A DNA stretch of 64,000 nucleotides. Origin: Leptospira sp. (lineage in GTDB: Bacteria > Spirochaetota > Leptospiria > Leptospirales > Leptospiraceae). The notes beneath the pieces were generated by a model that saw nothing but the letters and a program-made list of their open reading frames with translations, did no database searches and was not told the origin of the DNA. The stretch spans positions 224,001-288,000 of the forward strand of contig JAWXAQ010000008.1 in the NCBI GenBank assembly GCA_034439575.1, written 5' to 3'. The position numbers and the translations under genes were made by a program. Shown piece by piece: positions 7,406 to 10,752 of the stretch; positions within the stretch are counted from its first letter, which is position 1; every line of letters starts with the position of its first letter.

Positions 7406-7523
7406 GCAAACCTTGTTCCCATCTCGGGGCTGTCTCACCTCCGTGTTCGAATGCCCCCGCTTCGCCGTCCTGGCTTCGCTACCGATGGAAACAAGGTTTG
7501 CTAGTCCGGGGAAAGATCGAATA
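7406..7523 (+). repeat. Structured repeat element A, copy 1 (96-bp core 7406-7501 plus conserved tail GAAAGATCGAATA)
   Basis: 18-bp imperfect terminal inverted repeats GCAAACCTTGTTCCCATC / GATGGAAACAAGGTTTGC; internal GGGGC/GCCCC stem; homologous to copies at 8024, 8308 and 10517. Confidence 0.93.
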
Positions 7524-7551
7524 ACAACATCTATATGTCGGTAAAAAAGTT

Positions 7552-7579
7552 TAGACATTTTGAATTGGGTAAGTAAAAT
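7552..7579 (+). promoter_or_regulatory. Putative sigma70 promoter for the aspartic protease gene
   Basis: TAGACA-16 bp-TAAAAT, followed by RBS AGAGGAG (7589-7595) before ATG 7607. Confidence 0.45.
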
Positions 7580-7606
7580 CGATACAGTAGAGGAGTCAGA
7601 GTCTTT

Positions 7607-7987
7607 ATGGGTCTCGTTTATGCTAAGCTAATTCTCTCCAATCCTGTCCTACCAAACCAGAAAAAAATCGAATGTTCAGCTTTGGTTGATACTGGCGCTT
7701 TACATTTGTGTATTCCTGAACATTTGGCAATCCAGCTAGATCTAAAGACTTTGGAAAATAGGGAAGTCACTTTAGCGGATGGCAAAAAGCATTTGGTTCC
7801 ATATGCAGGTCCCGTTCGTATCGAATTTGAAAATCGTAATGCATTTGTCGGTGCTATGGTGCTTGGCGATGAAGTCTTGCTTGGTGCCATACCGATGGAA
7901 GATATGGATGTCATCATTCACCCCGCCTCACGAACGCTACGTGTGAATCCAGAAAGTCCCAATATTGCCATGGCAAAGATCAAATGA
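7607..7987 (+). CDS. Clan AA (retropepsin-like) aspartic protease
   Basis: ALVDTGA catalytic motif, VTLADG flap, VLLGAIPME; 126 aa; strong RBS. Confidence 0.9.
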
Positions 7988-7990
7988 TGT

Positions 7991-8019
7991 GCAAACCTTG
8001 TTCCCATCTCGGGGCTGTC
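7991..8019 (+). repeat. Truncated element A (left 29 bp)
   Basis: Identical to 7406-7434, and followed 4 bp later by a full copy. Confidence 0.9.
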
Positions 8020-8023
8020 GATT

Positions 8024-8143
8024 GCAAACCTCGTTCCCATCTCCCTTCCCTCTCACCTCCGTGCTCGAAGGAAGGACTACGACATCCATGTCTCCGTTAC
8101 CGATGGAAACAAGGTTTGCTTGGCCGGGGAGAAAGATCGAATA
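8024..8143 (+). repeat. Structured repeat element A, copy 2 (variant type; core 8024-8119 plus tail)
   Basis: Same TIRs; internal CCTTCC/GGAAGG stem and GACATCCATGTC hairpin; tail GAAAGATCGAATA. Confidence 0.93.
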
Positions 8144-8210
8144 ACTATATCTTTACTATTAGCTAGGGCACCTCGGATGTGTTATATGGATCTACATTTA
8201 GTTCGATGAC

Positions 8211-8297
8211 CCGATCCCGCTCTCCGCTTCAATCTTTCGCATAACTTTATAAAAGTTGGATTTGTTCACAAAGCGAAAGGATTTACGCTGTGATCGG
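8211..8297 (+). repeat. Structured repeat element B (REP-like)
   Basis: CCGATC...GATCGG and AATCTTTCGC...GCGAAAGGATT nested stems; homologous to the reverse complement of about 10372-10425. Confidence 0.75.
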
Positions 8298-8307
8298 TGG
8301 TGCAGTG

Positions 8308-8403
8308 GCAAACTTTGTTCCCATCTCCCTTCCCTCTCACCTCCGTGTTCGAAGGAAGGACTACGACATCCATGTCTCCGTTACCGATGGAAACAAGGTT
8401 TGC
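8308..8403 (+). repeat. Structured repeat element A, copy 3 (variant type)
   Basis: 96 bp, nearly identical to 8024-8119. Confidence 0.93.
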
Positions 8404-9176
8404 AGAATATAATAAATGATTTAGCAACAGAATTAAAAGGACTAAATGTGTAGATTCTGAAAAGTTCTGCAAAAATTAGTTTATTAGAAAGGCAGATTAA
8501 GGATAGCAGTGCTCGTGATATTGGAATCATCATCCTAGGAACGGAACGTCTAAATCAGCATTCCGATTATGGTGAAAAAGTGATTGTTGTTTCTGATAAA
8601 AAAGTAAATCTACCGGCTGGGCATTTGGATTCCAATTTAGGGAAGTATGTCTATGTCCAAGACGGAGGCAATACTTGTCAGTCCTATACGCTCTTGGGTC
8701 AGATGGTACTAGAGGGAGTTAAATTTCGAGACAATATAGATGCAGGAAGAAAACTTATACACGAATTGACGAGACTGCAATACCAAATGGGAGAAACGGG
8801 AAATATGTCAACGAATACTATCAATGCATACAATAAAAGCCTTTCTGATTTTGGACCGAAGGCGACTAACATCATGGATAAGGAAAGTATCAAAACGACA
8901 GAAGATAAGCGTAATGCGATCAAAGAACAACTGCAAAAAGGCAAGATTGTGAATTCGGGAATGTTTTTGGATGCATCGCCTGCAGAACCAAAATATGATA
9001 AAGATGGTAAGAAATTAGAGCCTAACAAAGGTCATAGAGTAAATATTGTAGGGTTTGATGATGTGAAAGGAGAATGGATCGTAAACGATTCGAATAAAGA
9101 AGGAGAACTCACACGCTATCCGTATGGCGATTATGAGCTTATGAATCGGTGGTCTACTGTCTTGGAGAAAAAGTAA
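8404..9176 (+). pseudogene. 5'-truncated papain-like (C39-like) peptidase domain, probable orphan polymorphic-toxin C-terminus (ORF-track 8580..9176)
   Basis: QDGGNTCQSY (Cys), GHRVNIVGFD (His), WIVNDS (Asp). The frame is open from 8454 with no start until GTG 8580, has an in-frame TAG at 8451-8453, and abuts repeat copy 3. Confidence 0.6.
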
Positions 9177-9971
9177 ATGATAAAAATAATTCTTTTGCTG
9201 TTAATGTCATTATCAATTTTTGCTGATGAAAAAAAAGAACTATCAGATTTAGTAAATAAGATAGAGAAATACAATGAAGCATTCATAAGTGGCCCAATGA
9301 TAATAAGCGAGAGCGATGAAGTCGTGCGATCGGTAAACTATTACATAAAGGAAGGAGATTTTAAGGATTTAATAAAGCTTAAGGAGAGGTCTGAAATAAT
9401 CGAAAAATGGGGTGATCGGCGGCGATGGTTCGTGAGCAAATGGCAGGGCAAAGAACCAGCGATCTACGTGTCTGCTGATTATGTTCCTGCATTTTATAAT
9501 AATGCCATTCAAAAAAATCAAAAACCAACTACCGACTTAAAGGATCATTTTGATTTTTACTTCAAAAATTATTGCGAATTTGACGGCAGTATTGACACAC
9601 GTTATGCGCGAATTAAAAAGATGAGACTGACCTATTACGATGCGCCATATACAGCAGTTAACAATATGATGAATTTCAAAGTCGTAAGTAAATTTAAAAA
9701 AATTGCAAGCTATGATATCGACCTCAAAAATGATGATAAGGTCATCAATGCGATGCAATCTTTTTATCCAATCAAACCGACTACTTTATTTGGTAATATT
9801 TTTGCCATTCAATTGAAAGTGTTAGAAGTCTATCCTGGAGAAAAGAATATGCCCCTGTGCACTTCCGATTATTATATGGGACGCAAAGGTTTAGGTAGTT
9901 ACGAACAAATCTTAGGTGAGATTGATGAACTTCCTGAGTTGAAAGGGAAGAGGAATCCATATTGGAAATAG
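9177..9971 (+). CDS. Exported hypothetical protein, candidate immunity protein
   Basis: ATG directly follows the upstream TAA (TAAATG); signal peptide MIKIILLLLMSLSIFA; no recognisable family. Confidence 0.65.
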   Translation: MIKIILLLLMSLSIFADEKKELSDLVNKIEKYNEAFISGPMIISESDEVVRSVNYYIKEGDFKDLIKLKERSEIIEKWGDRRRWFVSKWQGKEPAIYVSADYVPAFYNNAIQKNQKPTTDLKDHFDFYFKNYCEFDGSIDTRYARIKKMRLTYYDAPYTAVNNMMNFKVVSKFKKIASYDIDLKNDDKVINAMQSFYPIKPTTLFGNIFAIQLKVLEVYPGEKNMPLCTSDYYMGRKGLGSYEQILGEIDELPELKGKRNPYWK

Positions 9972-10350
9972 CTGAGCCTCGCAAAAACTACAATCGTGAA
10001 CACTTTGTTCGTTCAGATAGAATTTTTCGCGAGATATGAAATCCTTCTCCAGAAGCAGATACTCATCTGCAAAACTTAGATTAATATTTAATTAAGCAGC
10101 TCACAAGTGTAAGTGAGATAAAGTTCACAGATAACAGGGCGAGAGACAAATTTATAATCTATTTGCAAGTGTTTAACGCAATAAGATAAAACGCCGCCAG
10201 TGATAAATCCGCAACGACATTACGAGCGAGGATAAAAGCAAATTAATGGTTTGACAAGGTGAGTGAGCAATACGAATCAAATATTAGTAAAACATAAAGT
10301 TATAAATAATTTAATCTACTAGCGATTCGTGTAGAAGAAAAGAACGAGTA

Positions 10351-10425
10351 GGGAACAAGGTTGCTCGCACCAGCGATAGCAGCGGAAATCCTTTGCGAAG
10401 CAAAGATTGGAGCGTATAGCGCAGT
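10351..10425 (-). repeat. Element B plus 14-bp remnant of element A left end (inverted)
   Basis: Reverse complement CGCTATACGCTCCAATCTTT...AAGGATTTCCGCTGCTATCGCTGGTGCGAGCAACCTTGTTCCC aligns with 8218-8322. Confidence 0.75.
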
Positions 10426-10494
10426 CGTTTTTCACGATTAAGTCTCTACCAACTAACATATCCAATGTGCCCACCTCGCTCTAACCAATCCGCC

Positions 10495-10613
10495 TATTCG
10501 ATCTTTCTTCGGTTGACCAAACTTTGTTTCCATCGGAAGCGTAGCCAAGGATGGCGGAGCGGGGGCATTCGAACACGGATGTGAGAGAGCCCCGAGATGG
10601 GAACGAAGTTTGG
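10495..10613 (-). repeat. Structured repeat element A, copy 4 (inverted; core 10517-10613)
   Basis: Reverse complement closely matches copy 1; both terminal bases changed together (G...C to C...G); tail present at 10495-10507. Confidence 0.92.
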
Positions 10614-10752
10614 TGGGCAAGGGAAGGATATTCGCCTCCCCTTCACTCTGCCATCCTGGCTTCGTTCGCGTAGGCTCGTCGTCGCCTTTTTTGACATCCT
10701 GTCAAAACTTCTCCCTATAGGTCGAAGTCAGGCTCCTCAATTCGAATCCTTC
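10611..10752 (-). repeat. tRNA-Tyr 3'-end-derived structured repeat (RtT-like arrangement)
   Basis: TGGTGGGCAAGGGAAGGAT duplicates the tRNA-Tyr 3' end; TTCGAATCCTTC (10741-10752) is an inverted T-arm segment; internal hairpins. Confidence 0.6.

Follow-up and report, generated by a model that had tools for sequence, protein, structure and literature searches.

The 64,000-nt stretch of a Leptospira genome examined here (the window; all window positions refer to the whole stretch) raises the question of why a dispersed repeat of about 100 nt, which we call element A, repeatedly presents a pair of small hairpins with GGA in their loops. The original prediction read these as hairpins of the CsrA/RsmA type and proposed a dispersed CsrA-binding system. 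The answer we prefer, at a probability of roughly 0.4, is that element A would work as RNA, each unit clamping a single CsrA dimer, and would in addition have spread as selfish repeat DNA. Below, C-numbers are contigs of this genome (G000) and other G-numbers are the genomes compared with it. The window contains the following copies:

7406–7501, minus strand: element A copy 1, with type b hairpins; GGA loops at 7464–7474 (first) and 7437–7446 (second), in plus-strand coordinates
8024–8119, minus strand: element A copy 2, type a; GGA loops at 8081–8092 (first) and 8054–8063 (second)
8308–8403, minus strand: element A copy 3, type a, without a leader; GGA loops at 8365–8376 (first) and 8338–8347 (second)
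10517–10612, plus strand: element A copy 4, of type b and in the opposite orientation to copies 1–3

The hairpin strings and positions quoted in the original prediction are all correct. Copy 4 carries GCCAAGGATGGC at 10544–10555 as its first hairpin and ACACGGATGT at 10573–10582 as its second, both on the plus strand, and the first hairpin of copy 3 is GACATCCATGTC at 8365–8376 on the plus strand, which reads GACAUGGAUGUC on the minus strand. A 17-nt terminal-repeat pattern occurs nine times in the window, against 0.07 expected, and an nhmmer search finds 26 full copies and about five partial ones in this genome.

The strand that carries GGA folds into a 96-nt three-way junction, in which an 18-bp closing stem surrounds two inner hairpins with GGA loops. 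The closing stem has one G·U pair and no bulges, and the element ends in GCAAAC...GTTTGC. The first hairpin consists of a 2-bp helix, a 3x3 purine loop that reads GGA/GGA or GAA/GAA, a 4-bp stem and an NGGA loop; the second arm combines a 5–9-bp stem with a UC/GA pair step and a small CAC-GGAG-GUG hairpin. In copies 1, 3 and 4, the GGA strand reaches −41.9, −49.1 and −46.1 kcal/mol, and its complement −35.6, −42.5 and −35.7 kcal/mol. This is an advantage of 6–10 kcal/mol, with Z-scores of −5.4 to −7.4 and none of 200 shuffles as stable. When each sequence is folded alone, without an alignment, the minimum-energy structure contains at least two GGA-containing hairpin loops in 23 of the 26 copies of this genome and in 33 of 36 members from other genomes, and in most members the two GGAs lie 27–29 nt apart. 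The pairing of GGA loops on the G-U-favoured strand, which had been noted in the window copies, is therefore a property of the family.

Covariation supports the same fold. In the alignment of the 26 copies, 94.1% of the cells pair and 11 pairs have changed on both sides, which none of 500 shuffles reaches. Among the 36 members of other genomes, 89% of the cells pair as compared with 60% after shuffling, and double changes are seen at 33 of 34 pairs, a count that is inflated because this alignment was fitted to the covariance model. A third set, of 15 members that lie downstream of 23S rRNA, shows 85% pairing as compared with 72% after shuffling and 21 pairs with double changes (0/500 shuffles). 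The closing stem also records which strand is folded: G·U cells outnumber A·C cells by 41:3, and by 20:1 in the 23S rRNA-linked copies. Mutation alone would give equal numbers, which argues that one strand has been selected to fold, either as RNA or as single-stranded DNA.

Within this fold the stems vary and the loop GGA is kept, as had been proposed from the window copies and as is now seen genome-wide. First-hairpin stems are swapped among GACA/UGUC, GCCA/UGGC and GGCA/UGCC, and second-hairpin stems among CAC/GUG, GCA/UGC and CUGAAC/GUUCAG, with the GGA loop retained in each case; across the 36 aligned members, the closing stem and the second arm are wholly different between lineages yet still paired. 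The loops read AUGGAU, ACGGAU and ACGGAG, and also AGGAC, GGGAU, AGGAU, UGGAU and AAGGAC. In this genome, the copies exchange their parts as modules: the first hairpin is either GACA-UGGA-UGUC or GCC-AGGAY-GGC, the second arm has either CCUUCC/GGAAGG or GGGGC/GCCCC, and the small hairpin is either CAC-GGAG-GUG or GCA-GGAG-UGC. The covariance model adds members that share the core and have wholly different closing stems (C36:160292–160389, C30:8966–9061 and C30:8799–8888).

CsrA is a FliW-partnered regulator of flagellin translation, and this genome encodes both proteins in intact neighbouring genes (csrA, 83 residues; fliW, 153 residues), in agreement with the earlier statement that Leptospira encode CsrA. 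The CsrA/RsmE consensus 10-mer [AU]CANGGANG[UA] is not enriched genome-wide, with 355 occurrences seen and 356 expected. Within 29 family members, 30 such 10-mers occur, all of them on the GGA strand and none on the opposite strand; nine members have two, 12 have one and eight have none. The fit to the consensus that had been claimed for the window copies is thus borne out in the family, on the GGA strand only. The leaders of all four flaB genes contain GGA hairpins as well, and one of these leaders (C27:261798–261882; L080 499–585) has GGCCAAGGAUGGCC at its start, right behind a sigma-28-like CCGATC box. Element A copy 4 has this very 12-mer as its first hairpin. The stem and GGA of GGCCAAGGAUGGCC are conserved in 30 of 30 genomes of the genus, the fourth loop base differing in three of them.

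The same flaB leader contains three GGA sites, which are the 5' hairpin GGCCAAGGAUGGCC, an ACGGAU and the Shine-Dalgarno sequence AAGGAGGA, and this layout is conserved in 30/30 genomes. It resembles the hag leader of Bacillus, which is a two-site CsrA leader. For a different flaB gene, flaB3, PMC8668096 describes a gel shift of the GGA hairpin, and not of its AAA mutant, by the CsrA of L. biflexa; the same source reports Leptospira to be without homologues of csrB and csrC.

Several known RNAs share elements of this design. CsrA-binding motifs come in pairs because CsrA is a dimer, as stated in PMC4333381, the RMfam paper, which also lists TwoAYGGAY and the reverse complement of Bacillaceae-1 as two-hairpin orphan RNAs from outside the Gammaproteobacteria that are predicted to bind CsrA. 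Like TwoAYGGAY (RF01731), element A has two hairpins with GGA-centred loops, and its AUGGAU, ACGGAU and ACGGAG loops agree with AYGGAY or come close to it, where others read AGGAC or GGGAU. Internal loops of the stem that are purine-rich and tandem-GA-like would be a further likeness, if the definition of the motif is as we take it to be, in part from PMC4333381. Unlike TwoAYGGAY, element A is found in Leptospiraceae, is a three-way junction closed by 18–20 bp, occurs in multiple dispersed copies and has a conserved copy downstream of 23S rRNA. The RF01731 model gives no match at E<=10 (window 7990–8420; L121 1780–2010).

The reverse complement of Bacillaceae-1 (RF01690) likewise has two hairpins with CsrA motifs and comes from organisms that use FliW and CsrA, according to PMC4333381; the Leptospira element differs in phylum and in having been amplified as a repeat. 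The RF01690 model does not match element A. Bacillaceae-1 RNAs are often found beside rRNA operons, which would parallel the linkage to 23S rRNA described below. With no match to either model, the likeness is one of design and not of membership. With the sponges CsrB and CsrC and the sponges RsmX, RsmY and RsmZ, element A shares a hairpin-loop GGA in CANGGANG context and sites paired for a dimer, and its tandem arrays at the 23S rRNA locus total 4–6 sites. It is unlike CsrB and RsmZ in having two sites per unit, no sequence homology and the behaviour of a mobile repeat, with dispersed copies that lack a defined promoter or terminator. [quoted passage not shown]

We regard the family as specific to Leptospira. 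The covariance model finds members in 21 of 114 Leptospiraceae genomes and in three of 14 genera, with 11–20 copies in several species; L. idonii and L. ilyithenensis have several copies each. A degenerate pattern of the core, run against 185,579 species genomes, gives 22 matches, of which 15 are in Leptospira, one is in a Spirochaetota metagenome-assembled genome and six are scattered and probably due to chance. For the type that has 26 copies here, BLAST detects matches in four of 41 genomes of the genus, with 0–2 matches in each of the 40 congeners; judged from these matches, the 26 copies are a recent lineage-specific burst confined to this species. Other sub-lineages have multiplied elsewhere, with 20 matches in G011, 12 in G012, 11 in G017 and 12–15 in G036.

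One location is shared more widely. Downstream of the 3' end of 23S rRNA, 12 of the 30 loci scanned in the genus hold 15 members, all on the rRNA strand and 150–700 nt from the gene, and Rfam scans of foreign loci place 23S rRNA next to several members. G017 has three members in tandem; G036 and this genome have two each, and here the assembly splits the locus (the 23S rRNA 3' end is at the start of C25; the tandem members are at C23:217–311 and 385–479). The 23S rRNA-linked copies retain both GGA loops, and BLAST conservation spans the rRNA and its trailer and ends at the 3' end of the element. A leader motif, TATTCGATCTTT, is common to the C23 copies and to the 26 dispersed copies, from which the burst seems to derive from the C23 lineage. 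A terminator-like hairpin with a T run lies 43–55 nt upstream of nearly every 23S-linked copy and in some cases downstream as well; those that flank some of the copies are on the element strand. On these observations, the copy downstream of 23S rRNA is a better candidate for a working CsrA decoy than the dispersed copies are.

These observations can be joined into a mechanism as follows. The GGA strand would fold as RNA, with the 18–20-bp closing stem holding the two hairpins side by side; each hairpin would present GGA in a CANGGANG-type loop, with the GGAs about 28 nt apart, and the two loops could then clamp the two RNA-binding faces of one CsrA dimer. The element would act as a small decoy or, where it lies in a leader, as a CsrA-responsive module. 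One sub-lineage, with a 30-nt leader and often a Flavo-1 hairpin, has multiplied to 26 copies in variable, cassette-like regions, and most of these are probably by-products of selfish spread and not a designed network. Both the production of element A as RNA and its binding by CsrA are steps that we infer from fold, motif and position. A fuller proposal, in which element A would be a self-amplifying decoy transcribed in the trailer of 23S rRNA and at part of the dispersed copies, each unit taking up one CsrA dimer, we consider distinctly unlikely.

A number of findings weigh against a CsrA module. FliW is the established antagonist of CsrA in systems of this kind. Each unit has only two GGA sites, where known sponges have many, and several conserved features (the CGG junction, the purine-rich 3x3 internal loops and a UCGA...GAGA box) are unneeded for CsrA binding. 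The family is not detected in 93 of the 114 Leptospiraceae genomes at E<=0.001 and must therefore be dispensable, and its copy number leaps from 0 to 26 between congeners, as in selfish DNA. In gaps between co-directional genes, seven copies are sense and seven antisense. None of 29 dispersed members has a terminator within 120 nt, and a promoter scan of window 7300–8500 gives no promoter-like site on the element strand; the −10-like boxes that can be picked out by eye 21–32 nt upstream (TATAGT, TAGAAT, TATAAG) have no consistent −35 box and are not counted as evidence. At the 23S rRNA locus, the terminator between the rRNA and the element means that co-transcription would need read-through or an unrecognised promoter. 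Of the dispersed CsrA-binding system originally proposed, then, a conserved, strand-specific family with paired GGAs stands; the even orientation, the lack of nearby terminators and the confinement of the burst to one species do not speak for a system, and the dispersed pattern fits selfish spread better than a designed one.

If a CsrA decoy were made at the 23S rRNA locus, the translation of flagellin and of other CsrA targets would be coupled to rRNA synthesis, and a mobile repeat could place CsrA control on new genes. To our knowledge, spirochaetes have no known RNA antagonist of CsrA, and none has experimental backing in a bacterium that uses FliW. Element A would then be the first in a FliW-type (spirochaete) system as well as the first mobile CsrA-binding module, and its spread would show how the binding site of a regulator can move around a genome. 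A two-GGA-hairpin element next to 23S rRNA is in any case a concrete decoy candidate, and one that is easy to test because cultured carriers exist.

The explanation that survives best beside a CsrA module is that element A is a purely selfish hairpin repeat of the MITE or REPIN kind with no host function, whose structure is needed only during copying as single-stranded DNA or RNA and whose GGA loops are contacts of a mobilising enzyme or merely inherited. The burst to 26 near-identical copies against 0–2 BLAST matches per congener, the multiplication of other sub-lineages in G011, G012, G017 and G036, and the 18-bp terminal inverted repeats are what such a repeat would leave, and PMC11602168 reports Leptospirales to be rich in MITEs. 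Orientation is unbiased with respect to genes (7/7) and to the replication strand as judged by GC skew (eight loci one way, six the other). Three copies abut or overlap stop codons, and the dispersed copies sit in mosaics with a leader, up to 300–560 nt of further repeated non-coding sequence, Flavo-1 and fragments of the element itself. In these respects (a length of about 100 nt, terminal inverted repeats, intergenic position, single-lineage bursts and mosaics with other repeats) element A is like the Correia, ERIC, RUP and REPIN repeats.

It departs from them in what is conserved. MITEs keep their ends and are free in the middle, whereas element A keeps its core across genera, changes its terminal stem with compensation and shows a strong single-strand asymmetry. 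The flanks of the 26 copies show no target-site duplication; at C33:271908 and C30:5872 the flanking genes are not syntenic in relatives, so that the insertion unit and any target duplication are not definable there, and the 379-residue gene that the C30:5872 copy overlaps is not truncated relative to its orthologues. A partner enzyme is likewise missing, in that searches for Y1/RAYT, IS91 Y2, reverse transcriptase and TnpB found none, with DDE transposases outside the search and a metagenome-assembled genome liable to lack such genes. The RAYT profile PF01797, which gives no match in this genome, matched six of 14 control genomes; the blank with the IS91 profile is weak, as the control genomes gave no match either. 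Multi-copy open reading frames, taken as a proxy for transposases, form only three small families. The retention of a copy at one conserved locus (12/30 23S rRNA loci) is unexpected for junk, and the match of both loops to the CsrA consensus and the identity with the flaB hairpin are left unexplained. We regard a repeat without any host function as somewhat unlikely.

Selection for single-strand folding would also be expected of a recombination site used in folded form, such as an integron attC site or the Xer-used site of CTX phage, on which an XerA-like tyrosine recombinase would shuffle small cassettes. A recombinase of this type (305 residues; 231 bits with NF040815, whose cut-off is 220) stops 2 nt short of five copies on C11 that share one orientation and are interspersed with PIN-toxin pairs and small genes. 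G013 has a single member, which lies 34 nt upstream of the orthologous recombinase, between it and the 23S rRNA gene, and the distance is about 390 nt in G036 and about 2.7 kb in G002. A structure conserved more than sequence and folded on a single strand is a hallmark of attC, hairpin modules are reassorted between copies, and copies occur at island borders, one of them abutting the tRNA-Tyr duplicate at 10613 and others lying beside 23S rRNA 3' ends with partial duplicates. Element A further resembles attC in being an imperfect inverted repeat that folds on one strand and in forming same-oriented arrays between small cassettes, toxin-antitoxin pairs included, with a tyrosine recombinase at one array.

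Other genomes weigh against this association. With model R1, a member is found at only two of 12 recombinase loci scanned; G011, G012 and G017 have 11–20 members and no such recombinase at E<=1e-40. G007, G015, G020 and G025 have both, not adjacent, the model-R1 match being on another contig in G015, G020 and G025 and a BLAST-detected member lying about 7.4 kb from the recombinase on the same contig in G007. Adjacency is largely explained by the position of both at the 23S rRNA 3' flank, where partial rRNA duplicates are typical of an island hot spot. The conserved part of element A is its core and not the putative crossover stem, which lacks bulged bases and, apart from AAC/GTT, lacks conserved RYYYAAC/GTTRRRY boxes, and copies are of mixed orientation relative to cassette genes, copy 4 being inverted. 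Unlike attC, then, it has no extrahelical bases and no R/L box consensus, it includes many lone copies, and its conserved loops sit where attC sites vary. The recombinase is not an integron integrase either, since it scores 162 bits with TIGR02249 against a cut-off of 265 and leaves the IntI-specific region (model positions 179–235) unmatched. The integron reading proper was rejected, as no IntI was found and a repeat finder shows no arrays next to the recombinase in the four orthologous loci checked. On balance, we hold a folded-strand recombination site to be improbable. If the loops did serve mobilisation or recombination, element A would offer a clear example of a repeat under selection to fold as a single strand and for which no enzyme is known, and this would be relevant to the accompanying Flavo-1 motif, itself unexplained.

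Element A could also be a structured RNA that does something else, by stabilising the 3' ends of transcripts or serving in them as an RNase III target, by acting as a ribosome (anti-Shine-Dalgarno) decoy or by being the ligand of a different RNA-binding protein; we consider this quite improbable. In its favour, the long perfect closing stem resembles stabilisers or RNase III substrates, the second loop often reads GGAGGUGA, a full Shine-Dalgarno sequence, the conservation of the junction nucleotides and the purine-rich internal loops hint at a particular three-dimensional fold, and a role in ribosome biology might be indicated by the linkage to 23S rRNA. Against it, a stabiliser would be expected to show the orientation bias that is not seen, Shine-Dalgarno complementarity beyond GGA(G) is not conserved across lineages (AGGAU, GGGAU, UGGAU and AAGGAC loops), and no Rfam family matches.

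Around the four copies, the window contains these further features:

6299–7321, minus strand: M23 peptidase gene
7502–7535, minus strand: conserved leader that precedes copy 1 on the GGA strand, with the motif ATTCGATCTTTC...
7607–7987, plus strand: gene for a retropepsin-like protein
7991–8019, minus strand: 29-nt element A fragment, which corresponds to the 3' end of type b and is separated from copy 2 by 4 nt
8120–8208, minus strand: leader and linker from the Flavo-1 hairpin to copy 2, including CCGAGGTGCCC and ATTCGATCTTTC
8209–8305, minus strand: Flavo-1 RNA motif (RF01705), 50.4 bits against a cut-off of 42
8580–9176, plus strand: gene for a C39-like peptidase
9177–9971, plus strand: 264-residue open reading frame, function not assigned
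10365–10430, plus strand: Flavo-1 RNA motif, 44.3 bits, on the same strand as copy 4 and in the same order
10487–10516, plus strand: leader of copy 4, CTATTCGATCTTTCTTCGGTTGA
10613–10798, minus strand: single-copy tRNA-Tyr trailer, in which the 3' part of tRNA-Tyr is duplicated and two more GGA hairpins occur
10799–10968, minus strand: tRNA-Tyr and tRNA-Thr

Copy 1 lies 84 nt upstream of the M23 peptidase gene and shares its strand. The trailer next to copy 4 had been described as an adjacent tRNA-derived repeat; the tRNA-Tyr duplicate and the GGA hairpins are present (GCCATCCTGGC at 10650–10660 and TTTTGACATCCTGTCAAAA at 10689–10707 in plus-strand letters, forming on the minus strand), as is a hairpin that resembles the first one of element A, while 10613–10798 is single-copy and belongs to no repeat family. 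The duplicated part, at 10613–10647 on the minus strand, comprises the T arm and the acceptor strand with its CCA end, is found 150 nt downstream of the genuine tRNA-Tyr, with copy 4 immediately next to it. In appearance it is the attachment-site scar of an integrated element.

The junction at 7991–8019 recurs at C7:~101990–102020 and C35:36673–36694, in each case as a full element, NATC and a 3'-terminal fragment starting with GA, and a join of the same kind is found in another strain (contig of run X11). This junction may be a scar of recombination or deletion between copies. Contigs of four sequencing runs end at the repeats, and rearranged repeat junctions are seen in other strains; the run that carries an RNA label is marked as probably DNA.

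Flavo-1 is a motif described from Bacteroidetes. In the window, the gathering score of RF01705 is passed by the two neighbours at 8209–8305 and 10365–10430 and not by element A; the former makes a composite of Flavo-1, linker and element A with copy 2 and abuts copy 3. This genome has 32 matches to the motif, 23 of them above the cut-off, and roughly one in three has an element A copy within about 200 nt. The usual order on one strand is Flavo-1, a linker of ~85 nt (a CCGAGGYGCCC box, an AT-rich stretch and a CUUUCUUC tract) and element A, which is also found in other species (loci L030, L031, L036 and L055), and a longer unit may have Flavo-1 as its 5' part. Some copies (C28:~56000 and C11:~46700) have a clean terminator, GCCAAC...GTTGGC with a T run, about 190 nt upstream on the GGA strand, followed by a conserved box, GTTTATACGCAATACGATAAAA, which might act as a weak promoter of transcripts ending in element A.

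Gene content is also shared between clusters of the element. An antitoxin/PIN-toxin pair with 85% identity over 690 nt occurs in two of them (C7:104654–105343 and C11:43458–44147), and a paralogue of the C39-like peptidase gene of the window lies beside another (C33:48845–49341). The region C11:40691–47218 (L002 2692–9219) holds the recombinase, five element A copies and two PIN-toxin/antitoxin pairs in an integron-like layout that lacks an integron integrase, the array running into the contig end. Finally, the 23S rRNA 3' flank is a variable hot spot in the genus (loci L121–L150; C25:17–250 and C23:1–560 in this genome). Partial duplicates of the last ~60–170 nt of the 23S rRNA gene are scattered in several genomes, and the XerA-like recombinase often lies a few kb downstream of 23S rRNA, adjacent to it in G013 and followed by a Schlafen-type helicase gene in G002.

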